Below are positions 1,053 through 15,704 of a stretch of 38,339 bases of DNA, one piece after another. The stretch covers positions 18,247 to 56,585 of the forward strand of contig CAYVUT010000001.1 of assembly GCA_964455225.1 (NCBI GenBank). The letters run 5' to 3'. The position numbers and the translations under genes were made by a program. The stretch's first letter is position 1; each line of letters begins with the position of its first letter. This stretch comes from an uncultured Candidatus Saccharibacteria bacterium (GTDB lineage Bacteria > Patescibacteriota > Minisyncoccia > Phycocordibacterales > Phycocordibacteraceae). The notes under the pieces were generated by a model. The model saw nothing but the letters and a program-made list of their open reading frames with translations, did no database searches and had not been told where the DNA came from.

Positions 1053-1058
1053 TATAAT
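1053..1058 (+). promoter_or_regulatory. -10 box TATAAT, 7 nt before ATG 1066 (leaderless-type)
   Basis: TATAAT at 1053-1058 overlaps the first ATG of the ORF (1057). The second in-frame ATG (1066) sits at the 6-9 nt spacing seen at about 14 other genes in this window. Confidence 0.45.
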
Positions 1059-1065
1059 GGAGCGT

Positions 1066-3453
1066 ATGCGGCGACTGTTTTCCGTTGTATCAAGCACGAT
1101 GCGCCAGGTACTTGGCAGGGGAGCCGTGCTCCTGCTCGCTCTCCTCATCGCCCTCCCGCCGACGCTTCTTTCGTTTCCGCAGGCAGTGCATGCAGGATCG
1201 CAGAACTTTACCTACACAGGCGCAGAGGTAACGTGGACTGTCCCTGCCGGAGTGTTTTCAGTGACAGTCGATATGGCTGGAGCAGAGGGAGGGAATAATG
1301 CCGGACTCAACAATGGTACTGAAGGCTGGGGTGGACGCATGCAAGCAACGCTTACTACGACACCTGGAGAGACGCTTCGGATAGGGGTGGGTGGGAAGGG
1401 TGGGGACGGCTCTGGTGCGACCGGTGGTTCTGCCGGTTTTTATGCTGGCGGGGCAGGCGGTACTGGCGGCGGTGTCGGTTCCGGCGGAGGTGGAGGTGGA
1501 GGACAAAGCTACATCAAACGCGGCGGCTCAACCGACGCTCATCGCGTGCTTGTGGCGGGCGGCGGTGGCGGCACGGCAAACAACAATGCCGGCGGAGCTG
1601 GAAATGGCGGAATTACTTTGCATACCGAGGCAACCGCGTCCTCTGCGGCGACCGCAGGCATCTCGCCGCCCGCCGCCAACGGTGGCGGCGGCGGTGGCGG
1701 CGGTTGGGTTGGCGGTACCGGAGGAACTCAAAACGGTGGCGGCAACAATAACACTGGCTCTGGCGGTTCAAACATGGCTCACTCAACACAGACGAGCGGT
1801 GTGACCTCGACTGGCGCGTACCGAAGCGGTGATGGGTACGTGAACCTCTCCTATACCGACCCGACGAAAGTGACTATTACCACGACCGGGGATACGACGT
1901 GGACAGTTCCTGATGATTGGACGAACGACAACACGATTGAGGTGATTGGCGGCGGTGGCGGTGGTGGAACTGGTACCAATGGAGGTATCTTGGGTAATTC
2001 GGCAGGAGGCAATGGAGGTGGCGGTGGTGGCGGAGGGGCGTATTCAAGATCAATTGACATCGCTTCTATTTCACCAGGAGCGGACGTTACGGTGCGCGTA
2101 GGTGCCGCGACCGGTGACACGTATGTTTGTGATAGCACTTCAAATTGCGCAAGTATCGCAGGAAGCGCAGTGGTCGCTGGTGCAAAAGGAGGAGTAAATG
2201 CATCCGGTGCAACCGGTGGAGCGGGCGGAGTTGCGGCAAGCGGTGTTGCAAGTGGAACAGGGTCAGTCAAGACGAGCGGCGGCAGTGGAGGAAGCGCAAG
2301 TACTTCTCATGCGTCAGATGCAGATGGTGGGACGGGTGGTGGTGGAGGCGGAGGGGCCGGAGGATTCGTTGGAGATGGTGGTGGAGGAGGAGTAAGTGAT
2401 GGACTAGGGGCCGGTACTAATAATGGATCAACTGGAGGGGATGGCGGGGCTGCAAACACTTCTGCTGGTGTTGTTGGTGGGACTGGGGGTCTTGCAGGCG
2501 GGCTAAATGGATGTAATGACAACGGGTGTTCTGGTAGCGCAGGAAATACAGGGAGCAATGGTACTGAATTCGATGGGACCAACGGTTCTGGTTCCGGGGG
2601 TGGAGGAGGCGGAGGAGGTGAAGGAAGTTCGGCGGCTCCTTGTAGTGCAGCACAGTGTAACGGAGCCACGGGCGGCGCTGGTGGTAGCTATGGCGCAGGC
2701 GGTGGAGGCGGAGGAGGTGGAGCAAGTGGCGCTGGCGCTGAAGGCGAGGGCGCAAACGGCGGTAACGGCAGAAGCGGCATAGTAATTATTACCTACACTC
2801 CCGCCACCGCCCCCGATGCCTCAACGGGGCTTACTGCAACGGGGAGCGTCGGACAAGTCTCGCTCTCATGGACGGCACCGGTGAACGTGGGCGGCTCAGG
2901 CCAATCAATCACGAACTACAAGGTCTATCGCGATACCGCTTCTCCTGCGACGACGCTGCTCACGACTATCGGCAACACGACCAACTACACTGATACCGAC
3001 GTTACTGCCGGAACTACGTATTTCTATCGCGTCATCGCAGTGAACTATGCGGGACTTTCCGGCGCTTTTTCAAACGAAGATTCTGCGGCGCCAACCGCGT
3101 CGGTTCCAGATGCCCCCACAAACCTCGTGGCAACTGCAGGTTCAAATCAAGTGAACCTCTCGTGGACGACGCCCGCTTCAAACGGCGGATCTGCGATAAC
3201 CGGATATAAGGTGTATCGCGATGGCGCATCTCCTGCTACCACGCTTCTCGACACTATCGGCGTCACCAACACCTATACCGACTCGACTGCCACGAACGGC
3301 AACACCTATTTCTATCGCGTGAAGGCGACGAACGCGCAGGGCGATAGCGCCTTCTCAAACGAAGACTCGGCGATGCCGCAAGCGGGCGTAACCGCCCGCG
3401 TGATACGTATCAAGGGCGGCATCCGGCTCATGGGCGGCATACGCCTGCGCTAG
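1066..3453 (+). CDS. Large secreted glycine-rich protein: two glycine-rich beta-type domains plus two fibronectin type III domains
   Basis: The ORF runs 1057..3453; start 1066 (MRRLFSVV...) is preferred because of the -10 box. Signal peptide LLLALLIALPPTLLSFPQAVHA|G. Two modules open with FTYTGAEVTWTVPAGVFSVTVDMAGAEGG and TTGDTTWTVPDDWTNDNTIEVIGGGGGG. They close with GDGYVNLSY and GRSGIVIITY, the pattern of bacterial/phage glycine-rich domains. Two FN3 repeats follow (LSWTAP...YKVYRD...TTYFYRVIAVN and LSWTTP...YKVYRD...NTYFYRVKATN). The C-terminus is IKGGIRLMGGIRLR. Confidence 0.8.
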   Translation: MRRLFSVVSSTMRQVLGRGAVLLLALLIALPPTLLSFPQAVHAGSQNFTYTGAEVTWTVPAGVFSVTVDMAGAEGGNNAGLNNGTEGWGGRMQATLTTTPGETLRIGVGGKGGDGSGATGGSAGFYAGGAGGTGGGVGSGGGGGGGQSYIKRGGSTDAHRVLVAGGGGGTANNNAGGAGNGGITLHTEATASSAATAGISPPAANGGGGGGGGWVGGTGGTQNGGGNNNTGSGGSNMAHSTQTSGVTSTGAYRSGDGYVNLSYTDPTKVTITTTGDTTWTVPDDWTNDNTIEVIGGGGGGGTGTNGGILGNSAGGNGGGGGGGGAYSRSIDIASISPGADVTVRVGAATGDTYVCDSTSNCASIAGSAVVAGAKGGVNASGATGGAGGVAASGVASGTGSVKTSGGSGGSASTSHASDADGGTGGGGGGGAGGFVGDGGGGGVSDGLGAGTNNGSTGGDGGAANTSAGVVGGTGGLAGGLNGCNDNGCSGSAGNTGSNGTEFDGTNGSGSGGGGGGGGEGSSAAPCSAAQCNGATGGAGGSYGAGGGGGGGGASGAGAEGEGANGGNGRSGIVIITYTPATAPDASTGLTATGSVGQVSLSWTAPVNVGGSGQSITNYKVYRDTASPATTLLTTIGNTTNYTDTDVTAGTTYFYRVIAVNYAGLSGAFSNEDSAAPTASVPDAPTNLVATAGSNQVNLSWTTPASNGGSAITGYKVYRDGASPATTLLDTIGVTNTYTDSTATNGNTYFYRVKATNAQGDSAFSNEDSAMPQAGVTARVIRIKGGIRLMGGIRLR

Positions 3454-3456
3454 CGT

Positions 3457-3993
3457 ATGCACACCCGTATTGCTGTTACGTCGGCCCTCGTACTCCTTCT
3501 GGCGCTTGCGACTGGCTTCTGGGCCTCGCGCGACACATCTGAAGTGCCTATGAGTGCGCAGGAAGGAGCGGAAAAAAGCACGAATGTGCCGGATGGTTGG
3601 GTCGCGTACGAGAATCCTGGCCACCGATTTTCCTTTGCGCACCCGCCCGGGCTGTCCGTGAAAGAATACGATGAAGGGAATAACTCCGTAACGCTCGTGT
3701 TTAGCGAGAATGGCAGCTCGCGCAGCTTCCAGATATTCATTACCCCGTACACGGAAGATCACATCACGAGCGAGCGGTTTTCTATGGACGCCCCTTCGGG
3801 CGTCATTGAGAATCCAGTGGAAGTGGTGATCGGCGGGAGTGCGCGTGGATCGGTCTTTGACGGGGAACATGCGCTTCTAGGAAAGACGCGAGAGGTGTGG
3901 TTCATACACGGCGGATTTTTGTTTGAAGTGACGACCTACCGCGACCTCGATGCGTGGATTTCCGAAATCATGGCAACCTGGGTATTCTTATAG
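3457..3993 (+). CDS. N-terminally anchored hypothetical extracytoplasmic protein
   Basis: ATG lies 3 nt after the previous stop. One N-terminal hydrophobic helix (VTSALVLLLALATGFWA) precedes a soluble beta-rich domain of about 150 aa. No recognisable catalytic motif. Confidence 0.65.
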   Translation: MHTRIAVTSALVLLLALATGFWASRDTSEVPMSAQEGAEKSTNVPDGWVAYENPGHRFSFAHPPGLSVKEYDEGNNSVTLVFSENGSSRSFQIFITPYTEDHITSERFSMDAPSGVIENPVEVVIGGSARGSVFDGEHALLGKTREVWFIHGGFLFEVTTYRDLDAWISEIMATWVFL

Positions 3994-3998
3994 GAATT

Positions 3999-4343
3999 AT
4001 GAATTTCCGCTCGCCTACATTCCTCTCTGCGCTCGGTATTGCTCTTGCACTCGTGCTCGTGATCGGGCTCGGTCTCTGGTTTTCATATCGCGCACCAGAT
4101 GACGCCACGCGCGTTGCGCGGGCGATAGCAAAGCTGGTCATCGTTCCGCCCGAGACCCCGATCGTCACTACTGTCGTCGACCCGGAGAAACTCGCGGACA
4201 CGCCGTTTGCGGGCGAGGCAAAAGCGGGCGATCGCATCCTGTTTTATACGAATGCAGGTCGTGCCATCCTCTACGACCCAGTAGCTAACCGTGTCATCGA
4301 CATGGCTCGTACCGCATCGGCAGTAGAAAACACCTCTCGCTAG
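3999..4343 (+). CDS. Small N-terminally anchored hypothetical protein
   Basis: The ORF track starts at 3954 and overlaps the previous gene. The in-frame ATG 3999 (MNFRSPTFLSALGIALALVLVIGLGLWF...) lies 5 nt after the previous stop and begins directly with the TM helix. Confidence 0.6.
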   Translation: MNFRSPTFLSALGIALALVLVIGLGLWFSYRAPDDATRVARAIAKLVIVPPETPIVTTVVDPEKLADTPFAGEAKAGDRILFYTNAGRAILYDPVANRVIDMARTASAVENTSR

Positions 4344-4377: not shown

Positions 4378-5679
4378 ATGAGGCGTTTCCGGCACATTGC
4401 ACGTTTATTTTCGCTGCTTGCGATCTTGGCGGTTTTTTCGCCGTTTGCACACGCGCAACAGGAAATGACCGGCACGGATTTCACGATCTCGACCCCGGTC
4501 ATCACGACCGGCGGCTCGCGCGCGACTTCCGCAAGCTACGAGCTCTACACGGCTTTCGGGCAGCTCTCAAGCGCCGAGACTGCTGCGGGGAGCTTCATCG
4601 CGCGCGGCGGATTCCTCTATTTTCCAGTCGCGACGACGCCGACGCTTTCTGGCACGGCGGGGAATGCAGAAATGGCGCTCTCCTGGACCGCGTCGACTGG
4701 CACGCTCGCGCGCGTCAATGACTACCAAGTCGGCTATTCGACTACTTCCGGCGGCCCCTACACATTCATCTCAGTGGGCGAGGTGACTTCGTATACGAAA
4801 ACAGGACTCACGAATGGCACTACCTACTACTTCGTGGTGCGCGCCATGGGTGGCACGCTCACGCTCGCAGAGTCGAATGAAATAAGCGGCACGCCAAGCA
4901 CTACTGAAACTGGTGGTGGCGGAGGCGGCGGGGGTGGTGGCGGAGGAGGTGGCACGTCGGGTGTCGGCACCATCCGCATCTCGGGGCTCGCGTCTCCCGG
5001 GGCGTCGGTCACACTGCTTCGCGATGGGGCGGTGGACGCGACCAGCACCGCCGACCCGGGAGCGAACTGGGCATTTACCCGCACCGGCCTCTCGACCGGT
5101 ATCTATTCATTTTCGCTCTATGCGTCAGACACGGATGGACGCCAATCATCGACCGTCTCGTTCGTGCAGTCCATCTCAAAAGGCGTAACGACCGAAGTGA
5201 AGAACATCCTTCTTTCGCCGACGATCGGCGCGAGCCATCAGCAGATCAAGCAAGGCGAGACCATCACGTTCTTCGGTCTCACAGCGCCGGAATCCCAGGT
5301 GGCGCTCTTCGTCAACTCGGAGACGAAACTGGTCGAGAAGCTCGTCGCGAACGCGAGCGGCGCTTGGGTGAAGCCGATCAACAGCTACTTCCTTGAGAAA
5401 GGGGATCACTCCGCGCGCTCGCAGTCCGCGGCGAACGATCTGCTCTCGACCTACAGCCCGACGCTTGCCTTTAAGGTTGGCGATGTGTCGCTCCTTGCCG
5501 AAGATTCGTGCCGACGCTCGGACCTCAACTGCGATGGGAAGGTGAACTTGACCGACTTCTCGATCCTTCTCTTCTTCTGGAATCAGCTTGCGCCGACGAA
5601 CGCGCGTGCGAACATAAACAACAGCGGCCGGGTCGACATCACGGACTTCTCGATACTTCTTTATGACTGGACGGGATAA
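4378..5679 (+). CDS. Secreted FN3 / Ig-like protein with C-terminal dockerin module
   Basis: Signal peptide LLAILAVFSPFAHA|QQ. FN3 repeat (LSWTAS...YQVGYS...TTYYFVVRAM). A run of 14 Gly acts as a linker. Beta-rich repeats follow. The C-terminus carries two Ca-loop plus helix segments, DLNCDGKVNLTDFSILLFFW and NINNSGRVDITDFSILLYDW, the type-I dockerin pattern D-x-N-x-D-G-x-V-x-x-x-D. Confidence 0.8.
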   Translation: MRRFRHIARLFSLLAILAVFSPFAHAQQEMTGTDFTISTPVITTGGSRATSASYELYTAFGQLSSAETAAGSFIARGGFLYFPVATTPTLSGTAGNAEMALSWTASTGTLARVNDYQVGYSTTSGGPYTFISVGEVTSYTKTGLTNGTTYYFVVRAMGGTLTLAESNEISGTPSTTETGGGGGGGGGGGGGGTSGVGTIRISGLASPGASVTLLRDGAVDATSTADPGANWAFTRTGLSTGIYSFSLYASDTDGRQSSTVSFVQSISKGVTTEVKNILLSPTIGASHQQIKQGETITFFGLTAPESQVALFVNSETKLVEKLVANASGAWVKPINSYFLEKGDHSARSQSAANDLLSTYSPTLAFKVGDVSLLAEDSCRRSDLNCDGKVNLTDFSILLFFWNQLAPTNARANINNSGRVDITDFSILLYDWTG

Positions 5680-6808
5680 GCAAAAGAACGAAGAAGGCAG
5701 AAAGCAGAAAGCGGTACTGACACTGCTTGCGGTGTTTTTTGTGCTTGGTTGGCACATGCCCGCGGCTCACGCGGCGAGCTTGATCGGCGTTTCAAGCGTG
5801 CCCTCGATACAGCAAGGAGAGAGCGTTCCTATCGAATGGTATCTCGATACCGAGGGCGCCATCATCAACGCAGTCGACCTCACGCTTGTCTTTTCAAGCG
5901 ACACGCTCGAGGTCGCTGCGGAGCCAGGACGTTCGCTCGTTTCGCTGTGGGTCGAGCCGCCCACGGCTCGCAACGCGGAGGGCGTAGTGACGCTCGTCGG
6001 CGGGATCCCGGGCGGGCTCTCTGGCGTGGTCCCGCTCTTCCGCACGAACGTAACGGGCCGCGCGGCGGGACCGGCGGTCTTCGCGCTCTCGGCAAGCTCG
6101 AAGGCATATCTCCATGACGGGAGCGGGACTCCGGTGGCTATCGAGCTCCCGCAATTCCAGCTCGCCGTCGGCAGCTCTACGGCCGCGTTTGCGCGCTCCT
6201 CAACACACCCTGATCAGGAACAGTGGTATCGCGCGCAGGACGTCAAACTCGCGTTCCCGTACGACGCGTCTGCGTCGTATCGCTACACCTTTACGCAGGA
6301 TTTCAACAGATTCCCGGATGGGGAGGCGCAAGAGACTGACGGCTCGCTCACCTATACCGATCTTGCAGACGGCGTGTATTTCTTCCGTGTCGTCGAAACT
6401 GGGGCGGACGGTGCCGCCACAGACAAGGGCGTATTTCGCGTGCAGATCGACCGCACTCCGCCGGAAGCATTTACGCCGCTTCTCGCTACCAGCACCGATC
6501 TCTTTGACGGCAAGCCGTTCCTTTCGTTCGCTACGGTCGATAAGACCTCGGGCATCACTCGCTACGAAGTCCGCTCCGGATGGTTCGGCCGCTCGCGCGA
6601 AGCACGCTCGCCGTATGCTGCCTCACGGCCGCTCCTTGGCGATTCGGTGCGCGTCCGCGCGTACGACGCGGCAGGGAACTCTCAGGATGCATACGTCTCG
6701 TATCCGGGCGTGATCGGTACGCTGACGCTTATCACCATCCTCGCCGTGCTCGGCGTGATACTGGGAATCGGAATACGGTATAGTCGTAAGAAGCGCCTGC
6801 TCCCATGA
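5663..6808 (+). CDS. Cohesin-like surface protein, C-terminal single-pass membrane anchor (paralog 1)
   Basis: Overlaps the previous gene by 17 nt. Signal peptide (KQKAVLTLLAVFFVLGWHMPAAHA|AS). N-terminal beta domain VPIEWYLDTEGAIINAVDLTLVFSSDTLEV...VVTLVGGIPGG resembles cohesin. The middle module is shared with the next gene (HPDQEQWY, DGVYFFRV, IDRTPPEAF, SGITRYEV, AYDAAGN). C-terminal TM helix GTLTLITILAVLGVILGIGI followed by RYSRKKR. Confidence 0.75.
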   Translation: MTGRDKQKNEEGRKQKAVLTLLAVFFVLGWHMPAAHAASLIGVSSVPSIQQGESVPIEWYLDTEGAIINAVDLTLVFSSDTLEVAAEPGRSLVSLWVEPPTARNAEGVVTLVGGIPGGLSGVVPLFRTNVTGRAAGPAVFALSASSKAYLHDGSGTPVAIELPQFQLAVGSSTAAFARSSTHPDQEQWYRAQDVKLAFPYDASASYRYTFTQDFNRFPDGEAQETDGSLTYTDLADGVYFFRVVETGADGAATDKGVFRVQIDRTPPEAFTPLLATSTDLFDGKPFLSFATVDKTSGITRYEVRSGWFGRSREARSPYAASRPLLGDSVRVRAYDAAGNSQDAYVSYPGVIGTLTLITILAVLGVILGIGIRYSRKKRLLP

Positions 6809-8217
6809 ATGCGACTCGTCTCATCCGGCGAATCTTCTTTCTGATCCTTGCTTTGAGTGCGTGGACGTTTGCGCCAGCTACTGCAGCCGCGGCAACGATC
6901 TATCTCTCGCCCGCAAGCGGCACGCACGCCGTCGGTACCACATTTTCCGTGCAGGTGCAGATGAACACCGAAGGGAAGGCGATCAACACGGGAGAAATCA
7001 CCGTTTCGTATACCGCGGGCACGCTTGAGCTCGTGCGCGCTTCTCAGGGATCCACCTTCACGCTCGCTACTCCTGGTTCGCCGCGCGCCTCAGGCGGTAC
7101 GGTCTACTTTGGCGGCGGGATACCGAACCCGGGATACACCGGCTCAAGCGGCACGCTCGGCACGCTCGTCTTCCGGGTGAAAGCGCCAGGAAAAGGCGTC
7201 GTCTCTCTTTCAGACGGCAAGGCGCTCTTGAATGATGGTTTCGGAACGGACGCATTCTCGCGCGCAACCGGCGGGGAATACACGCTCGTTTCTTCGGGTG
7301 CTCCCGAGCCGCTCCCAGTAACGAAAGGTGCGCCCGTCATCTCTTCGCCGACGCACCCGAACCAGAGCACCTGGTACGCAACTTCTTCGCCCGTATTCGT
7401 GTGGACGCTTCCGAGTGGCGCTGACGCGGTGAGCTTCGAGTTCGATCAGAAGAAAGATACGGCGCCCGACGGTGTCGCAGAGGAGGTTGATGGCGGGAGT
7501 ACGCAGTATGCGCCTGTCACGGATGGCGTCTGGTACTTCCACCTGCGCGCTCGCTCGAGCGGCTCGTTCGGCCCCACCGCGCACTACCGCATCCAGGTAG
7601 ACACCACGCCGCCGGAGCCGTTCTCGCTCTCGATCGTGACTGATATAGAAGGAACGCCCACGGTCAGTTTCGAGACCACTGACACGCCGTCCGGGGTTGC
7701 CCGCTACGAGGTGGCGGTCGACAATTTGGTGGTCGAGAAGAGTGCTACGTCGACCATGAAGATTTCCTCTATCTCGCGCGGCCGGCACATGATCTCCGTG
7801 CTAGCATATGACTATGCGGGAAATCTTCGTGCCGCGCGCACCACGATATTCGTAGATAAAAGCGTTATGGTATCGCTCACGCTCATCACTCTGCTGCTCC
7901 TCTTGAATCTCCTCATCACGATCCTGCTCCTGATCCTTATCTGGCTTGAGGTGCAGGATAGGAAGCGCCGCGCACCGCTCTCGCAGAGGGTGAAGCGCGC
8001 GCAGCGCGATATCGACGATCGCCTTGAGGCGCTTCGCGATGAGGCGCGTAACCGGCTCTCCACCATCTCGGATGTGCCCGCCAAAGACATCGTCGAGAAA
8101 GAGCAGACACTCGAAGACGAGATGACGCACATCCTTGAAGATGCGAAGATAAGCATCGATAAGACCATCGCTTCGCTCGGCCCGGTTCCCGAAAAAGACA
8201 AGGCAAAAGAGGAATAA
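6805..8217 (+). CDS. Cohesin-like surface protein, C-terminal membrane anchor plus charged cytoplasmic tail (paralog 2)
   Basis: ATGA overlap with the previous stop (6805-6808). Signal peptide ILALSAWTFAPATAAA|A. Cohesin-like domain GTTFSVQVQMNTEGKAINTGEITVSYTAGTLELV...GTLGTLVFRVKAPGKGVVSL. Shared middle module (HPNQSTWY, DGVWYFHLRA, VDTTPPEPF, SGVARYEV, AYDYAGN). TM helix SLTLITLLLLLNLLITILLLILIWL, then an ~89-aa Lys/Glu/Asp/Arg-rich tail. Confidence 0.8.
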   Translation: MNATRLIRRIFFLILALSAWTFAPATAAAATIYLSPASGTHAVGTTFSVQVQMNTEGKAINTGEITVSYTAGTLELVRASQGSTFTLATPGSPRASGGTVYFGGGIPNPGYTGSSGTLGTLVFRVKAPGKGVVSLSDGKALLNDGFGTDAFSRATGGEYTLVSSGAPEPLPVTKGAPVISSPTHPNQSTWYATSSPVFVWTLPSGADAVSFEFDQKKDTAPDGVAEEVDGGSTQYAPVTDGVWYFHLRARSSGSFGPTAHYRIQVDTTPPEPFSLSIVTDIEGTPTVSFETTDTPSGVARYEVAVDNLVVEKSATSTMKISSISRGRHMISVLAYDYAGNLRAARTTIFVDKSVMVSLTLITLLLLLNLLITILLLILIWLEVQDRKRRAPLSQRVKRAQRDIDDRLEALRDEARNRLSTISDVPAKDIVEKEQTLEDEMTHILEDAKISIDKTIASLGPVPEKDKAKEE

Positions 8218-8247: not shown

Positions 8248-8270
8248 CCGCGCACCCTTTGGGTGCGCGG
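8248..8270. terminator. Bidirectional terminator between convergent genes
   Basis: ccgcgcaccc-ttt-gggtgcgcgg. The minus-strand reading is followed by TTCATTTTTCTC and the plus-strand reading by TGTCGTTGTG. Confidence 0.65.
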
Positions 8271-8753: not shown

Positions 8754-8761
8754 TTGAATCA

Positions 8762-9167
8762 TGGAGGCGGGGGGAATTGAACCCCCGTCCGAATCTGGCT
8801 TAGAAAGCGCTTCTACGACGCATAGTCCCGATTAGGGTTTAGAAGAGGGTGCGAGGAATCAGGACGAAACCACTCCTCTTCGATCCCGAGATTGAAGCGG
8901 GCCGGATGGGCGTCCGGTCGCCGAACCCACAGAAGATTCCGCCCGCCCTTTCGCTGTGAGTGCCGAGAGAGGGAAGACGTCGCTTAGGCGAAAGCGCGTT
9001 ATGCGCGTGCGTAAGCGAACGCGAAGTCAGACATACCGAAGTACGGGGACTTCACGCTTGCAAGAGTATTCTTTGCAAGTATGGTGCTTCATGGATTTAC
9101 GTGGCATTGAAGCGTGCACGGCGTCGCGCGTCTTTCAAAGTACAGACCGTCAAGGCCGGTCACCCCC
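8762..9167 (-). ncRNA. ssrA: tmRNA (SsrA), one-piece, CCA not encoded
   Basis: The minus strand begins GGGGGTGACCGGCCTTGACGG and ends GGACGGGGGTTCAATTCCCCCCGCCTCCA. The 7-bp acceptor stem GGGGGUG/CGCCUCC includes the G3-U pair needed for alanylation. The T-arm is GGGGG-TTCAATT-CCCCC. smpB lies directly upstream. A candidate tag ORF sits about 81-116 nt from the 5' end, followed by a UUCG-capped helix. Confidence 0.9.
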
Positions 9168-9214: not shown

Positions 9215-9658
9215 CTAGCGGTGCTTGAGGGCGCGGGCAGTTTCCCGTGCCGCATCTTTCTTCTTCAGGTCTTCTCGCTTGTCGGCTTTGCCTTTGCCGC
9301 GCACGACCGCGATCTTAACCTTCAGATATCTTTTATTATTATACACCTCAAGTGGCACTATTGTCAACCCCTTTGCGGATTCGGCGTCAGCGATGATGTC
9401 GATCTCTTTCTTCGAGAGCAACAGGCGGCGCGGGCGCTCGGGGTCATAGTCTTTCGCGGTGTTCGCTGCTTGGTATGGCGGTATCGTCATGCCGACGAGA
9501 AAGGCCTCGCGCCCGCGCACGAGGACGCGTGACCCGTCGAGTGACCCGTTTTTCGCGCGGAGCGCTTTCACTTCACCTCCCGTGAGCTCGATACCCGCAG
9601 TCATCGCCTCGATGACTGCGAATCGCAGGAGCGCCTTTTTGTTTTCGATGAGAGCCAT
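9215..9658 (-). CDS. smpB: SsrA-binding protein SmpB
   Basis: The 147-aa product is typical of SmpB: IENKKA..., GIELTGGEVKALR, FLVGMTIPPY, RPRRLLLSKKEI, GLTIVPLEVY and a basic C-terminal tail. It is adjacent to ssrA. Confidence 0.93.
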   Translation of the reverse strand: MALIENKKALLRFAVIEAMTAGIELTGGEVKALRAKNGSLDGSRVLVRGREAFLVGMTIPPYQAANTAKDYDPERPRRLLLSKKEIDIIADAESAKGLTIVPLEVYNNKRYLKVKIAVVRGKGKADKREDLKKKDAARETARALKHR

Positions 9659-9660
9659 AC

Positions 9661-10500
9661 CTATTTATTGATACCAAGGAATGCCTCGATCTCCGCTCGC
9701 TTGTCGATGACGTCGTCGTGACCCATCTGGTATGCCTCCGCCACCTTGCGTCTCGTGCGGGTGACGAGTCCGGTCGGCAAAGGGTACGAGGGGCCGATGA
9801 CCATGATCTCAACGCCGCCCGGGATGTGATCCCACTCTGCTCTCCGGATGTCTCGCATGATGAGCTGGCGCAGCATAGGGGGCGAGAATGTGGCGTACCA
9901 ACGCATGAGAAAGGCGTTCAGGGGCGGGGTGTAGGTGGTGTTTGCCAGGCAGAGGATTTTCGTTGCGCCGGCCTCGTGCGCTTGCTTGAGAAGTGCGGCC
10001 ATGTTCGCCGAGACGCCGCCGTCGATGTAGGGACGCATGCCGAGCCGGACCGCGCCGCCGTAGAGGAAGGGAAGCGCTTTTGCTGCGCGCATCACCTCAT
10101 ACGGGTCGAGCCAGAACTCGTTCGTTACGTAGTGGGTGTGGCCGGTCTCAAGATCCGTAACCGGTACGAACCAGCGCGTTTTGGTCTTGTCGAGCGCCGC
10201 CTCATTAAGCGGGAGCTCGCGGCGGAGAATGGTGTCGATCAGGTAGTCGAGATTGAGTTTCGGCGGGAAGATGGTCGCCACTTCAGGCGAGGGGATATAG
10301 CGGAGCCAGAGCCGCTCGATATCTTCGGTCTGTCCGGCAAGGTAATAGAGCATGTTGCCCACAGAACCAGAGGCGGCGACGAAAATGTCCGGCTCCTTGA
10401 TGCCGAGCTTCTTCGTGAGCGCCACGAGCGCCCCTGCGCCGTATGCGCATTTCATTCCGCCGCCCGAGGTTACGATAGCGATTTTCTCTTCTTTCGGCAT
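9661..10500 (-). CDS. Patatin-like phospholipase family protein
   Basis: Oxyanion motif TSGGGMKCAYGAG, a nucleophile-elbow variant AASGSVG and the Asp motif YIDGGVSAN. The ORF track starts at GTG 10518. ATG 10500 (MPKEEKIAIV...) is preferred because TATAAT lies 7 nt upstream. The stop is 2 nt before the smpB start. Confidence 0.8.
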   Translation of the reverse strand: MPKEEKIAIVTSGGGMKCAYGAGALVALTKKLGIKEPDIFVAASGSVGNMLYYLAGQTEDIERLWLRYIPSPEVATIFPPKLNLDYLIDTILRRELPLNEAALDKTKTRWFVPVTDLETGHTHYVTNEFWLDPYEVMRAAKALPFLYGGAVRLGMRPYIDGGVSANMAALLKQAHEAGATKILCLANTTYTPPLNAFLMRWYATFSPPMLRQLIMRDIRRAEWDHIPGGVEIMVIGPSYPLPTGLVTRTRRKVAEAYQMGHDDVIDKRAEIEAFLGINK

Positions 10501-10507
10501 GTGTTCG

Positions 10508-10513
10508 ATTATA
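10508..10513 (-). promoter_or_regulatory. -10 box TATAAT (minus strand), 7 nt before ATG 10500
   Basis: Minus strand reads gga-TATAAT-cgaacac-ATG. Confidence 0.45.
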
Positions 10514-10545
10514 TCCACAAAAAGGAAAAAAGGCGCGGATTCTGT

Positions 10546-10551
10546 TATACT
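10546..10551 (+). promoter_or_regulatory. Extended -10 box TGtTATACT, 9 nt before ftsH ATG 10561
   Basis: tcTGtTATACT-tcccgcact-ATG. Divergent from the patatin promoter 33 nt away. Confidence 0.5.
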
Positions 10552-10560
10552 TCCCGCACT

Positions 10561-12504
10561 ATGGCACCGGAGCGCAACAAAAAACCTAAGGCAAAAAAAG
10601 ACACACCATCTCCGAAAGGAGGCGGTCCGAATCTCCCGTTTTTCGGCAAACCGTCATTCCTCGGCAATCTGCTCACCACGTTCCTCATCTTCCTGCTTCT
10701 CATGAGCGCGTATTCGCTCGCGACCGATTTTGGTACGCGCATCGAGGAGATACCGCTCTCGCAGGTGGCGCGGGATGTCGCCGCCGGCGAAGTGAAGAGC
10801 ATCACCGTGCATGGCGAGACGCTCAAGCTCGTGTATGCGGATGAGACAGAGCGCAAATCGCGCAAAGATCCTGCGGCTGGGCTTCCCGAGACGCTTACCT
10901 CATATGGCGTTACCGCCGAAGCACTTTCAAAAGTCGCCTTCACTATTGAAGGACAGTCAGGATTCCTGTACTGGTTCCTTGAGCTCGCACCGATCCTGCT
11001 CCCGGTATTCTTCATCGTGTTCCTCTTCTGGTTCTTGTCGCGGCAAGTGAAGGGTGCTGGCATGCAGGCGTTCACGTTCGGACAATCGAAGGCACGCGTG
11101 ATCGATCCGGCAGATACGACGCAGCGCGTGACGTTTGCGGACATCGCGGGCGCACGCGAAGCAAAAGAGGAACTGGTCGAGATCGTGGACTTCCTCAAGA
11201 ATCCGAAGAAGTTTCTTGATATCGGCGCACGTATCCCCAAGGGCATCATCCTCATGGGTGCGCCAGGTACCGGAAAGACCCTGCTTGCGCGTGCGGTCGC
11301 TGGTGAGGCGGGCGTGCCGTTCTTCTCCATTTCCGGATCCGAGTTCGTCGAGATGTTTGTCGGTGTCGGCGCGTCTCGCGTACGCGATCTCTTCCAGCTC
11401 GCAAAGAAAAGCGCGCCGGCGATCATTTTCGTAGACGAGATAGACGCGGTCGGCCGCGTGCGCGGCAGCGGTGTCGGGGGCGGGAACGACGAGCGTGAGC
11501 AGACCCTGAACCAGATCCTCGTCGAGATGGACGGATTCGAGCCGACGGAGAAGGTGATCGTGATGGCCGCAACGAACCGCCCTGACGTGCTTGACCCGGC
11601 ACTGCTTCGCCCTGGCCGCTTCGACAGGCGTGTCACTATCGATCCGCCCGACCGGAAGGATCGCGAGGAGATCCTCAAGATTCATGCGCGCAAGAAGCCG
11701 CTCGGTCCTGACGTGAACCTTGCAGTCGTCGCGGAGCGCACCCCAGGCTTCTCGGGCGCTGAGCTCTATTCGCTCATGAACGAGGGCGCGATACTTGCCG
11801 CTCGCGAGAATCGCAAGGAGGTCACACAGTACGACCTCATCCGTTCCATCGAGAAGGTGATGCTCGGTCCTGAGCGGAAGAGTCACCTGCTCTCGAAGAA
11901 AGAAAAGGAGCTCACGGCGTATCACGAAGCGGGCCACGCACTCGTCTCCTCGGTGCTCGAATATGCCGATCCGGTGCATAAGATTTCCATCATCAGCCGT
12001 GGCAGGGCTGCCGGGTATACGCTGAAGCTCCCGTTTGAAGACAAGAAGATGCAGTCCAGGAAGCAGTTCCTCGATGACATTGCCGCAACGCTTGGCGGAT
12101 ATGTCGCTGAAGAAATGGTTTTCGGCGATGTGACGACCGGTCCTTCAAACGACCTGGCGGTCATCACGGCGCTCGCGCGCGACATGGTGGCGCGCTATGG
12201 CATGTCGGAGAAGCTCGGGCCGATCGCGTTTGGCGAGCGAGAGATGGGCCGCGAGCCATTCTCTGAAGCGGTGGCTGCAAAGATCGATGCCGAAGTGGAG
12301 CGCATCATTGACGAAGCTAAGGCACGCGCCCGCACCACGCTCGAGGGAAATCGTCCAGCGCTCGACGCGATCGCGAAAGAGCTTGTCGAGAAGGAGACTA
12401 TCGAGCGCGACGAGTTCGAGAAGCTTTTGATCGCAAACGGCATTACGCCGAAGAAAAAAGAAGAGGAGGGAATCACGATCGCTCCTTCAAACGGGGTTGC
12501 GTGA
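10561..12504 (+). CDS. ftsH: ATP-dependent zinc metalloprotease FtsH
   Basis: Two N-terminal TM helices. Walker [24 protein letters not shown], Walker [13 protein letters not shown] motif [19 protein letters not shown] and the zinc site HEAGHAL. The ORF-track start 9718 is an antisense extension over the patatin gene. Confidence 0.96.
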
Positions 12505-12859: not shown

Positions 12860-13267
12860 TCAAACAACTTTTTGTTGCAGCGTTATTGTTTTTCCGGCAA
12901 GCGTGCGAATCGAGTGCTTATATTTCTGGAACAGCTCCTCGACGACTTCTTCAAGCTTGTCGGGCGGGAACGCGAGCGCTCTCTCCGTCTCGATCTGGCA
13001 CAGGTCATCTCGCGCGCCGCCAGGAGTCCTGGTGGCGCTGAAGATTATCGCGCTAGTCCACGGGTTCACGTTCTCACCGAACCTGATCTCAAACGTTGCG
13101 ACCGGACGGAGCATCTGTTCCGGGTCGCATGTATGAGGCCAGAGCCGGAGCAAGCATTCGATACGCGCCAGCATTCCACCAAGAGACGAACCTCCTGCTT
13201 TGCCGAACGTTTCAATGCGTGAGTCGTATTTACCCTTCTCAAACACCGTATACAAACGAATTCCCAT
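12860..13267 (-). CDS. Hypothetical protein (135 aa)
   Basis: The ORF track starts at TTG 13300; the first ATG is 13267 (MGIRLYTVFEKGKYDSRIETFGK...). The composition is protein-like, the gene has its own terminator, and I recognise no family. The overlapping plus-strand 241-aa ORF is Arg-rich shadow. Confidence 0.55.
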   Translation of the reverse strand: MGIRLYTVFEKGKYDSRIETFGKAGGSSLGGMLARIECLLRLWPHTCDPEQMLRPVATFEIRFGENVNPWTSAIIFSATRTPGGARDDLCQIETERALAFPPDKLEEVVEELFQKYKHSIRTLAGKTITLQQKVV

Positions 13268-13410
13268 TGCGTGTACCCCCCGTACCCTGCTTCCTGGCAA
13301 TCAGGAAACTTCCGAAGAGTAGCGTAGCAGAGGTGCCAGGCTGCCGCAAACGGTGTAGAGTAATTTCACCGCGCCCGTATGGACATACCATACGGCCGGT
13401 TCGTTCGGCG

Positions 13411-13443
13411 AAAAAGAATACGAAAGGTTCTTCGATTCTTTTT
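13411..13443. terminator. A/T-flanked hairpin (bidirectional terminator-like) 10 nt upstream of tRNA-Ile
   Basis: aaaaagaat-a-cgaa-aggttc-ttcg-attcttttt. It reads as stem plus T5 on both strands. Confidence 0.45.
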
Positions 13444-13453
13444 ACCTCACTCA

Positions 13454-13527
13454 CCACCCGTAGCTCAGTTGGTTAGAGCATCGAGCTTATACCTCGAGGG
13501 TCCTTGGTTCGAGTCCAAGCGGGTGGA
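13454..13527 (+). tRNA. tRNA-Ile, anticodon UAU (reads AUA); CCA not encoded
   Basis: Manual cloverleaf. Acceptor CCACCCG/CGGGTGG plus discriminator A. D-arm GCTC-AGTTGGTTA-GAGC. Anticodon arm TCGAG-CTTATAC-CTCGA, giving positions 34-36 as TAT. Variable loop GGGTC. T-arm CTTGG-TTCGAGT-CCAAG. All stems are Watson-Crick, 74 nt in total. Confidence 0.85.
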
Positions 13528-13535
13528 CACTAATT

Positions 13536-15704
13536 TTATTCCAAATGCATCTCGCGGTTCGCTTCCTCTAGGCGGCGCGCGAGCGCGGGGAAGCGGGCGA
13601 GGCTCGGATCAGTGCTCACGAGCGCGGCAGCTTCAGTGCGCGCCGCCTCGACGAGCTTGATGTTCTTGAGCGCTTCCATCGCGACGTCAGAGACGCCCCA
13701 CTGGCGGCCGCCCCCCAGTTCTCCAGAACCGCGGAGCGTAAGGTCGTATTCGGCAAGTTCGAAGCCGTTCTTCGCGGTCGTGAATGCCCTCATGCGCTCG
13801 CGCGTGTTCGGCCCCGCAGATTCCGGCAATGCAAAGCAGTAGGCCTGATGCGTGGAGCGGATGACGCGACCCCGGAGCTGGTGGAGCTGGGCGAGGCCGA
13901 AGCGTTCTGCGCCTTCAATCAGGATGACGGTCGCGTTCGGGACGTTTACGCCCACCTCGACCACCGACGTGGCGACCAGGATCTGGATTTCATTCTTCAG
14001 AAACATGTCCATCGTCGCCTCCTTCTCGGCGGGTGTCATCTTGCTGTGGAGTATGCCGATATCGAATTCGGGAAATACGTCTTTCGCAAGCCGCTCTGCT
14101 TCCGCTTTCACTGACTTTGCCTGGAGCGCCATTTCTTTCTTGGGATCAGGTTCGTCGATGCGCGGGCAGATCACATACGCTTGTCGCCCTGCCGTAAGTT
14201 CTGTACGCACGCGCGCGTACGCCTCTTCGCGCTTGTCTTTCGCAAGCACCTCCGTGGCGACCGGCTTTCTGCCGACCGGCATCTCGTCGAGAATGGTGAG
14301 ATCGAGGTCGCCGTAAATAGTGAGCGCGAGCGTGCGGGGAATCGGTGTCGCGGTCATGGAGAGCAGGTGCGGCGTATTGCCGTCTTTCCCGACGAGTTTC
14401 TGACGATGCGAGACTCCGAAGCGATGCTGTTCGTCGATGATGGCGTACGCCAAGTGCTTGAATGAGAGCGATTTCTCGACGAGCGCATGCGTGCCGATGA
14501 CGATCGGTATCTCGCCGTTCGCCACCATCTTCCGGAACGCGGCTTTCGAGAGGCTCGTGGATTCCTCGCGGCGTATCTTGGAGGGGAATTTCCGGCATTC
14601 TTTGCCGGTGATGAGTCCGATAGGGATCGGATGGTCTTTGAAATAGGAAACGAAGGTTGAGAAATGCTGTTTCGCGAGGATTTCCGTGGGGCAGAGATAC
14701 GCAACCTGAAGCGTGCCCGCGATTCTTCCGGGCGGCCGCGAGGTGGCGACCAGGTATGCGGTTGCCGCCGCGACCGCGGTCTTGCCGCTCCCTACGTCGC
14801 CCTCAAGGAGCCGCATCATGGGATGCTGCTTCTTGAAGTCGGCGATGATCGCATCGATCGCGCGCGTCTGCGCGCGCGTCGGCGGGAAAGGGAATGAGGC
14901 GACGAAGCTTTGCAGCGCGTCGTGGTCGACCGTGACCGCGAGCGCGTGTTCCTGCGCTGCTGCCGCCCGGCGTTGGTTCATGGCAAGCTGCAGAGCGAAT
15001 ACCTCCTCGAAAGCGAAGCGTTTGCGCGCTGCGTCCGCGTCAGCGCGCTTCTTCGGGTGATGCATCCACACGAGCGCAGTGGCAAGCGAGGGTAGGTGAT
15101 AGCGTTCGAGGATGTCGGTCGGGATAGGGTCTTCCATCCGCTCGTGCGCCCCCGACTCGAACACTTTCTTGAGCGCATAGAAGAGCCAGAGCGAAGAGAT
15201 CCCCATGCTTTCTGGATACACCGGATGAAGCGGTTCATCTGTGGGAAGGTCTGACCTTCCCACAAAAAGATTCTCGTGTGCCGTGTCGGGATTGACGGGC
15301 GTCTTGTCTATTTCCGGATTAGCGACATAGGGTTTTTCTGAGGTGCCGGTGACCTTGCCGCGAATCTTCACCACCATGCCATCGTGGAGCGTTTTTGCGA
15401 TATAGGGCTGAGAGAACCACATGAGCTTGATCCGCCCTGAAGCGTCTTCGAGCCATGCTTCAGCGATCGGCCTCCGGGATTTCCAGGTTTTCCGCACGTC
15501 AGGTTTGCGGATAGTGCCGTAGAGCGTCACCTCCGCTCCAGGCGCAACACTCTGCGTCGTGCCCGTGGGACTTGCAGTTTCATAGCGGGCAGGGAAGTGA
15601 TACAGCAGATCGCCAATGGTGCGTATACGAAGCTTCGAGAGCGCCCGTTTTTGGTCGGGCTTAAGCCGCGTAAAGTGCTTTTCGATGGGGTCGCCGGAAT
15701 TCAC
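13536..15704 (-). CDS. recG: ATP-dependent DNA helicase RecG
   Basis: Wedge/OB N-terminal domain. Helicase motifs LLEGDVGSGKT, IDEQHRFGV, LSMTATPIPRT, VEVGVNVPNATV and QLRGRVIR. The ORF-track start 15878 overlaps the malic-enzyme gene. GTG 15704 (MNSGDPIEKHFTRLKPDQ...) lies 6 nt after a TATACT box. Confidence 0.92.
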   Translation of the reverse strand: MNSGDPIEKHFTRLKPDQKRALSKLRIRTIGDLLYHFPARYETASPTGTTQSVAPGAEVTLYGTIRKPDVRKTWKSRRPIAEAWLEDASGRIKLMWFSQPYIAKTLHDGMVVKIRGKVTGTSEKPYVANPEIDKTPVNPDTAHENLFVGRSDLPTDEPLHPVYPESMGISSLWLFYALKKVFESGAHERMEDPIPTDILERYHLPSLATALVWMHHPKKRADADAARKRFAFEEVFALQLAMNQRRAAAAQEHALAVTVDHDALQSFVASFPFPPTRAQTRAIDAIIADFKKQHPMMRLLEGDVGSGKTAVAAATAYLVATSRPPGRIAGTLQVAYLCPTEILAKQHFSTFVSYFKDHPIPIGLITGKECRKFPSKIRREESTSLSKAAFRKMVANGEIPIVIGTHALVEKSLSFKHLAYAIIDEQHRFGVSHRQKLVGKDGNTPHLLSMTATPIPRTLALTIYGDLDLTILDEMPVGRKPVATEVLAKDKREEAYARVRTELTAGRQAYVICPRIDEPDPKKEMALQAKSVKAEAERLAKDVFPEFDIGILHSKMTPAEKEATMDMFLKNEIQILVATSVVEVGVNVPNATVILIEGAERFGLAQLHQLRGRVIRSTHQAYCFALPESAGPNTRERMRAFTTAKNGFELAEYDLTLRGSGELGGGRQWGVSDVAMEALKNIKLVEAARTEAAALVSTDPSLARFPALARRLEEANREMHLE

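Follow-up and report, generated by a model that had tools for sequence, protein, structure and literature searches.

Cohesin-dockerin modules that act outside cellulosomes are an established concept in the literature, and several described systems come close to the locus reported here. In Clostridium thermocellum, the cell-bound cohesins of OlpA, SdbA and OlpB (PDB 3ul4, 4fl4 and 3kcp) capture the type-I-like dockerin of a secreted protein. The toxin/glycosidase complexes of Clostridium perfringens, in which a cohesin is followed by an FN3-like domain (GH84C, 2w1n; GH33 cohesin, 2vo8), employ the pair outside cellulose degradation. In these complexes, secreted glycoside hydrolases carry the modules, which link enzymes together. 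Ruminococcus flavefaciens ScaE is a sortase-anchored single-cohesin protein that docks the non-catalytic, cellulose-binding protein CttA, as part of an elaborate cellulosome and through a dockerin of the X-dockerin type. Non-cellulosomal modules are also found in Archaea and Bacteria that do not degrade cellulose, for example the Archaeoglobus fulgidus cohesin (2xdh). Here we describe a cassette of three overlapping genes (positions 4378-8217, + strand) in a 38,339-nucleotide stretch of DNA, referred to below as the window, from an uncultured Candidatus Saccharibacteria bacterium of the Patescibacteria, or candidate phyla radiation (CPR). Gene 1 encodes a secreted protein that ends in a dockerin, and genes 2 and 3 encode membrane proteins that would each begin with a cohesin. 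Its source is probably a Doudnabacteria-like member of this group. We consider it probable that this chromosomal operon builds an enzyme-free cohesin-dockerin surface assembly, which serves Patescibacteria as a core cell-envelope or attachment structure.

With OlpA, SdbA and OlpB, structures of which came up among the Foldseek and sequence matches, the cassette shares the fold and the Ca-loop/helix design, and a cell-bound cohesin would here, too, capture the dockerin of a secreted protein. It differs from them in its transmembrane (TM) helix in place of SLH domains, its single cohesin per protein, its non-enzymatic client of FN3 and immunoglobulin-like (Ig) domains, its lack of a carbohydrate-binding module (CBM) or hydrolase, and its CPR host. 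The C. perfringens modules provide the best structural match to gene 2, but the cassette has no enzyme on either side of the pair, and its cohesin proteins are integral to the membrane. ScaE and CttA resemble the proposed assembly in that a cell-anchored protein with a single cohesin displays a non-enzymatic surface protein by means of its dockerin. The A. fulgidus cohesin superposes on the gene 2 model with a TM-score of 0.72; such archaeal and bacterial modules occur as scattered single proteins, whereas the cassette has the fixed form of an operon with a single dockerin gene and two to four TM-anchored cohesin genes, distributed across the radiation. Within the CPR, a bacterium that expresses cohesin and dockerin proteins in situ has been reported (bioRxiv 10.1101/2021.08.21.457207), and a transposon sequencing study of Saccharibacteria describes an essential envelope protein, SEML1_0315, that bears a dockerin domain (PMC10633639). 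SEML1_0315 was considered as an ortholog of gene 1 and rejected, as it has 927 aa, is monocistronic and lacks cohesin neighbours. No earlier description of the operon was found in the literature searched, the coverage of which was incomplete, so a prior account is possible.

All three open reading frames (ORFs) were confirmed on the + strand and encode proteins of 433 aa (gene 1, 4378-5679), 381 aa (gene 2, 5663-6808) and 470 aa (gene 3, 6805-8217). The original prediction, made from the DNA letters, had described them as translationally coupled, and both overlaps can be read in the DNA. Genes 1 and 2 share 17 nt (5663-5679), from the gene 2 ATG at 5663 to the gene 1 TAA at 5677-5679. This segment is coding in two frames, specifying the near-invariant end of gene 1 (Y-D-W-T-G-stop) and the start of gene 2 (M-T-G-R-D-K); a distant gene 2 homolog, P0007, begins MTGQDK. 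Genes 2 and 3 are joined by an ATGA start/stop overlap at 6805-6808.

The type-I-like dockerin occupies the end of gene 1 (5503-5676). It consists of two duplicated segments with a repeat spacing of 30 residues, DLNCDGKVNLTD-FSILLFFW (aa 382-401) and NINNSGRVDITD-FSILLYDW (aa 412-431), each comprising a 12-residue Ca loop (loop 1, 5521-5556, aa 382-393; loop 2, 5611-5646, aa 412-423) and a helix, and the protein terminates in W-T-G. A family profile of the last 66 residues matched solved type I dockerins (2y3n_B, E=1.8e-11; 4fl4_A, 3.8e-9; 1daq, 1.4e-6) and reached the type II CipA module at 2.5e-4 only. Both repeats align to 2y3n_B, and the AlphaFold model contains two helices (aa 391-399 and 421-432) at a predicted local distance difference test score (pLDDT) of ~90. 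The profile matches and the two confident helices bear out the type I assignment made in the original prediction. Pfam Dockerin_1 (PF00404) is found on the majority of gene 1 orthologs; gene 1 alone gave E=1.2e-4 and 22.6 bits, against a cut-off of 22.9.

The Ca ligands of loop 1 are canonical throughout the family, with D1 and N3 in 81 of 82 members and D5 and D12 in all 82. Loop 2 of gene 1 has N1, N3, S5 and D12, which explains its marginal Pfam score; family-wide, D12 is present in 82/82 and D5 in 75/82, with Asp at position 1 in just 29/82. This degeneracy suggests that Ca dependence or the mode of binding may differ from those of canonical dockerins. A Cys pair flanks loop 1 in 59/82 members, and the W-T-G terminus is kept in 73/82. 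With its invariant D, N, D, D and S positions and its W-T-G end, the dockerin is the best-conserved part of gene 1. The classical C. thermocellum type I dockerin code places a Ser-Thr pair at positions 10-11. Both repeats of the cassette dockerin are hydrophobic at these positions, L-(V/I/T), which points to a recognition code different from the classical one.

Genes 2 and 3 are paralogous (32% identity, E=2e-28) and, as had been predicted, follow one plan, with an N-terminal hydrophobic signal, a beta domain of ~135 aa, two more beta domains and a single C-terminal TM helix. In gene 2 these are a signal peptide (5663-5773), the putative cohesin (5774-6178), a Y_Y_Y-like domain (6185-6460), a Big_13-like Ig domain (6464-6706) and the TM helix (6719-6799). 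Gene 3 has a signal peptide (6805-6891), the putative cohesin (6892-7308), a Y_Y_Y-like domain (7342-7596), a Big_13/OmpL47-like Ig domain (7597-7860; OmpL47-type match, 1.4e-7) and the TM helix (7864-7947). The middle, Y_Y_Y-like domain of both proteins starts with a conserved S-x-T-H-P-D-Q-x-x-W-Y motif. The original prediction called the cohesin proteins tail-anchored. The C-terminal TM helix is indeed there, but the signal peptides make both of them type I single-pass membrane proteins, not tail-anchored ones in the strict sense. Gene 3 continues past the helix in a charged cytoplasmic tail of 89 aa (7948-8214), which that prediction had left unmentioned. Two gene 2 homologs, P0004 and P0009, carry a PD-(D/E)XK_3 nuclease-like domain fused N-terminal to the signal anchor, representing either a real cytoplasmic domain or read-through of a small upstream ORF. 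We treated these as side fusions and not as part of the cassette, given their position N-terminal to the signal anchor and their absence from genes 2 and 3.

The cohesins were not detectable by direct searches. Neither gene 2 nor gene 3 matched Pfam Cohesin (PF00963) at E values up to 1, no cohesin came up in direct Pfam and NCBIfam scans, and single-sequence searches against PDB sequences returned nothing; detection required family profiles and a modelled structure. A full-length family profile found cohesins in the PDB weakly (E=0.05-0.6), and PF00963 was matched by 11 of the 36 aligned members of the gene 2 family (best, 1.6e-8). Homologs of gene 2 include PF00963 proteins, one of them named as a cohesin domain-containing protein of Patescibacteria. 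The AlphaFold model of gene 2 (pLDDT 92.4) starts with a signal helix. A beta domain follows at 38-170 (pLDDT ~95), then two more beta domains and, at 353-379, a helix. Foldseek placed the C. perfringens GH84C cohesin-FN3 module 2w1n at the top (E=7e-11). The isolated cohesins 2vo8, 6kgc, 1g1k and 2xdh superposed on the model with TM-scores of 0.70-0.73 and root-mean-square deviations of 3.1-3.6 A, and type II cohesins superposed less well. As modelled, the N-terminal domain of gene 2 has the nine-stranded beta jelly-roll of a cohesin. An end-to-end alignment joins gene 3 to P0032 (E=1e-51). The P0032 N-terminus, in the region aligned to gene 3, passes PF00963 (35.3 bits; cut-off 24.1), and the gene 3 ortholog in the related locus L001 has a weak PF00963 match on record. 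Paralogy with gene 2 and the PF00963-positive relative P0032 thus argue that gene 3, too, encodes a cohesin, in keeping with the original prediction for both proteins.

Canonical cohesins bind the dockerin through their 8-3-6-5 sheet. Conservation in the cassette cohesins peaks on predicted strands b3, b5 and b6 and on the LxNDGxGT loop. If the strands are assigned correctly, b3, b5 and b6 would be three of the four that form the dockerin-binding face.

The cassette is lineage-wide and not peculiar to one genome, and this is what is new here. One genome per species was scanned for gene 1 relatives, which are encoded in at least 554 confirmed places in these species-representative genomes. ORFs were called in 80 loci and scored with sub-profiles, and linkage was counted in the 75 loci with at least 2.5 kb of downstream sequence. 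In all 75, a cohesin gene directly follows gene 1 on the same strand. Gene 1 and the first cohesin gene are a median of 4 nt apart, and successive cohesin genes have a median spacing of -22 nt. Two cohesin genes are present in 53 of these loci, three in 18 and four in one, giving two to four in 72/75. The trio is therefore co-conserved, a point on which the original prediction could have failed. Its description of the system as minimal did not hold up, as the cassette extends across Patescibacteria, usually has two to four cohesin genes and often includes a fourth, small membrane protein. The latter is encoded just upstream of gene 1 (3999-4343, + strand, ATG at 3999) and has 114 aa, comprising a TM helix at the N-terminus and a conserved ~90-aa domain. 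In 41/75 loci a homolog is encoded immediately before gene 1 in the same orientation (median gap 40 nt), and searches of Pfam and the PDB with the 114-aa protein found no relative.

Each locus has a single dockerin ORF in 81 of 82 cases; in ~1 Mb of related loci, a second one was seen in L043 only. In that locus (13094-15287), an extra cohesin protein without a TM helix consists of a signal peptide, a cohesin, a long proline-rich linker and three repeats of ~45 aa. It is followed by the second dockerin-bearing ORF, which is cut by the locus end. This second pair indicates that further cohesin-dockerin pairs exist in these genomes.

The gene 1 family numbers more than 500 proteins, nearly all of 425-465 aa, which share ~38-50% identity across many classes and keep a constant domain order in almost every locus. 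An exhaustive profile search gave 3,577 matches at E<=1e-30, a figure that is no clean family size because it is inflated by giant FN3-repeat proteins; its informative part is the single-stretch, full-length matches of 414-493 aa. Homologs are named as dockerin proteins of Doudna-, Kaiser-, Giovannoni-, Magasanik- and Taylorbacteria and of Paceibacterota, and every cassette record with a lineage-specific name belongs to Patescibacteria. The titles 'uncultured Gammaproteobacteria', 'Saccharibacteria' and 'Planctomycetia' on third-party annotation (TPA) records of many cassette loci (L003-L079) look unreliable and played no part in the taxonomy. In the nearest relative, L001 (a 595-kb contig), the same trio encodes 432, 372 and 465 aa, retains the overlaps, including that of 17 nt, and shares the downstream synteny of SmpB, FtsH, RecG and malic enzyme. 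The commonest layout elsewhere is gene 1, a short cohesin-Ig-TM protein (~290 aa), sometimes a cohesin-only protein, and a long cohesin-Y_Y_Y-Ig-TM protein. Gene 3 belongs to this long, widespread class, to which its cohesin is orthologous; gene 2 belongs to a minority first-position class that includes the Doudnabacteria record. L008 and L016 are two whole copies of the cassette on separate contigs of the same metagenome-assembled genome, reflecting either a duplicated cassette or a mixed bin.

Upstream of its dockerin, gene 1 encodes in order a signal peptide, an N-terminal module, an FN3 domain, a poly-Gly linker and two Ig-like domains. The signal peptide, MRRFRHIARLFSLLAILAVFSPFAHA (4378-4455), is modelled as a helix at residues 2-23 and carries an A-H-A motif, where cleavage would probably take place. 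The N-terminal module (aa 27-84, 58 residues; 4456-4629) stands out by its invariant and near-invariant alignment columns; it contains three to four short [ST]-x-[NDS]-[FY]-x-[LIV] repeats and terminates in GFLYFP. It was found in no other ORF of the 82 loci. AlphaFold gave it a pLDDT of ~30 while the remainder of the gene 1 model is confident. It may be that the module needs a binding partner, or other copies of itself, in order to fold; too shallow an alignment is another possible cause. The FN3 domain (4630-4905; Pfam fn3, E=2e-6; PDB 3mpc, E=2.1e-8) is confidently modelled and leads into a linker of 14 glycines (4912-4953; pLDDT <50 at aa 179-193), and a Gly-rich linker is kept in the family alignment. 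Two Ig-like beta-sandwich domains of Big_6 type (4963-5484) follow, with confident strands at aa 196-368, and PF17936 is found on many orthologs. Foldseek searches with the gene 1 model matched strings of FN3 and Ig domains only, and variants of ~600 aa carry an insert in which, as in the rest of these variants, no enzyme domain was found. Judged by its model, the gene 1 protein is not an enzyme.

These data suggest a model for the assembly. The gene 1 product would be exported by way of its Sec signal peptide as a rod in which three beta-sandwich domains (FN3, Ig, Ig) separate the 58-residue module at the N-terminal tip from the dockerin at the C-terminus. The products of genes 2 and 3 would be held by their C-terminal TM helices, with the cohesin outermost and spaced off the membrane by two Ig-like domains. 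The dockerin would plug, with Ca2+, into the cohesin of gene 2, of gene 3 or of both, so that some six beta-sandwich domains would make up a stalk in two pieces, with the tip module held well off the membrane. From the membrane outward the order would be TM helix, Ig-like, Y_Y_Y-like, cohesin::dockerin, Ig, Ig, Gly linker, FN3 and tip module, and the overlapping reading frames would hold the parts in co-expression. The data directly support the domain identities, the topology signals, the absence of enzymes and the co-conservation; from these we infer the binding of dockerin to cohesin, its Ca dependence, the choice of cohesin and the biological role. The pairing is suggested by the strict adjacency of the genes, their translational overlaps, the identity of the two domains and the conservation on cohesin strands b3, b5 and b6. 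A core envelope or attachment structure is suggested by the near-invariance of the cassette and of the gene 1 architecture across many CPR lineages.

Several observations weigh against this model. The profile searches proposed with the original prediction came out mixed: the dockerin is significant at the family level and relatives of the cohesin proteins pass PF00963, but genes 2 and 3 themselves have no direct Cohesin match and gene 1 falls 0.3 bits below the Dockerin_1 cut-off. In addition, loop 2 is degenerate, the tip module has no predicted fold, and there are two to four cohesin genes for each dockerin gene. Some of the cohesin sockets may serve partners encoded elsewhere.

The defining features of a cellulosome were looked for. 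The original prediction had noted the lack of a glycoside hydrolase or CBM and a lone dockerin on an FN3/Ig protein, and indeed no glycoside hydrolase, CBM or second dockerin is present in any sizeable ORF of the window. Multi-cohesin scaffoldins are missing as well: the cohesin proteins of the window have a single cohesin each, and so do the products of nearly all 172 cohesin genes from related loci. A Pfam scan of the window proteins gave no match to SLH or LPXTG, and a C-terminal TM helix is found instead. On its defining features, as far as a window-level search for hydrolases and CBMs and a locus-level count of dockerins can test them, a cellulosome is excluded, and the cassette qualifies as a non-cellulosomal cohesin-dockerin system, with modules on proteins without cellulolytic function. 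A broader version of the idea casts genes 2 and 3 as anchoring scaffoldins that serve dockerin-bearing hydrolases from other parts of the genome, gene 1 being one client among many. Metaproteomics took the expressed CPR cohesin and dockerin proteins for a cellulosome (bioRxiv 10.1101/2021.08.21.457207), cohesin genes outnumber dockerin genes at each locus, and L043 has its second pair nearby. We nevertheless find this version very improbable in view of the single cohesin per protein, the TM-helix anchor where SLH or sortase would be expected, the 38-kb window devoid of hydrolase and CBM, the lack of an enzyme domain in gene 1 and its ~600-aa variants, and the finding of just one further dockerin ORF in ~1 Mb of related loci. 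It is also improbable, if slightly less so, that the gene 1 dockerin has no partner in the cohesins of genes 2 and 3, the dockerin being a Ca-stabilised terminal domain or binding another target, and the genes being neighbours through a common envelope process. The degenerate second Ca loop and the hydrophobic residues in place of the classical Ser-Thr pair would fit such a situation. They have to be set against the adjacency of two known partner domain types in 75/75 loci with translational overlaps, the dockerin's standing as the most conserved part of gene 1, and above-average conservation on three of the four strands expected in the binding face.

A different function for the same assembly, put forward in the original prediction, is conceivable, in which the docked FN3/Ig protein is an adhesin that binds the host or partner of an episymbiont and the cohesin proteins are mere anchors. 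The organism belongs to the Patescibacteria, whose cultivated members are epibionts (PMC10633639), the FN3/Ig rod of gene 1 resembles many adhesins, and the tip module would, by the domain order, be the most distal part of the assembly. Yet gene 1 keeps its domain order, its length and its level of identity across classes that are expected to differ in their hosts, and the tip module is among its best-conserved parts. Host-specific adhesins are usually far more variable. The near-fixed length (~425-465 aa) and order fit a conserved structural part better, for example an envelope scaffold, a spacer or an attachment organelle of a general kind, and we see a host-binding adhesin as possible but unlikely. 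In a further reading, gene 1 could form the outer layer of a two-component, S-layer-like canopy that is the main surface layer of these ultra-small bacteria, pinned by the cohesin-dockerin joint to the TM stalks of genes 2 and 3, with the tip module folding through contact with neighbouring copies. In the two-component archaeal S-layer SlaA/SlaB, a stalk protein anchored in the membrane sets a constant distance between the membrane and a second, outer protein. SlaA/SlaB serves as a works-like analogy only, having no relation in sequence or fold and a joint that is not cohesin-dockerin. We consider the canopy quite unlikely; if true, it would be a new way of building an S-layer-like structure and a near-universal marker for a large part of the CPR.

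Returning to the surroundings of the cassette, a GC-rich hairpin with a 10-bp stem (9 GC pairs) lies between convergent genes at 8248-8270, 30 nt past the gene 3 stop, and is likely to mark the 3' end of the cassette's transcription unit. A promoter scan found no more sites than shuffled sequences (1 vs 1.8 expected). The window, with a GC content of 55-61%, is otherwise ordinary bacterial chromosome, with genes for tmRNA, RNase P RNA, tRNAs, FtsH, RecG, ribonucleotide reductase, MurJ, LepA, LeuRS and TsaD. Just past the cassette, the tmRNA gene (8759-9167, - strand) adjoins that of SmpB on the same strand (9215-9658), and SmpB is likewise found downstream of the trio in L001. On the upstream side, positions 1057-3453 (+ strand) encode a secreted glycine-rich protein of 798 aa with two C-terminal FN3 domains, followed after 4 nt by a gene for a 178-aa membrane or secreted protein (3457-3993, + strand); at the equivalent place L001 encodes a protein of 4,687 aa that bears a Peptidase_S74 domain. 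It is possible that the cluster of surface-protein genes extends beyond the trio. The FtsH ORF (9718-12504, + strand) has 928 aa as mechanically called, compared with 649 aa for its L001 ortholog, and its first ~280 codons overlap a patatin-like gene on the opposite strand (9661-10518); the overlap and the shorter ortholog suggest that the true start is near 10.55 kb. A tRNA-Ile with anticodon TAT (UAU) is encoded at 13454-13528 (+ strand), an uncommon bacterial means of decoding AUA.

Matches to cohesin and dockerin in CPR genomes or metaproteomes should, on these results, not be taken as evidence of cellulosomes or carbohydrate degradation. The proposed pairing involves two domains and can be checked on recombinant fragments alone. 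If the joint is real, it would offer a naturally occurring, orthogonal cohesin-dockerin pair that is TM-anchored and uses an unusual, hydrophobic code for recognition. Most CPR lineages are uncultivated, and knowledge of how these bacteria build their envelopes and attach to partners is scant; few surface gene sets are, like the cassette, conserved over many CPR classes.

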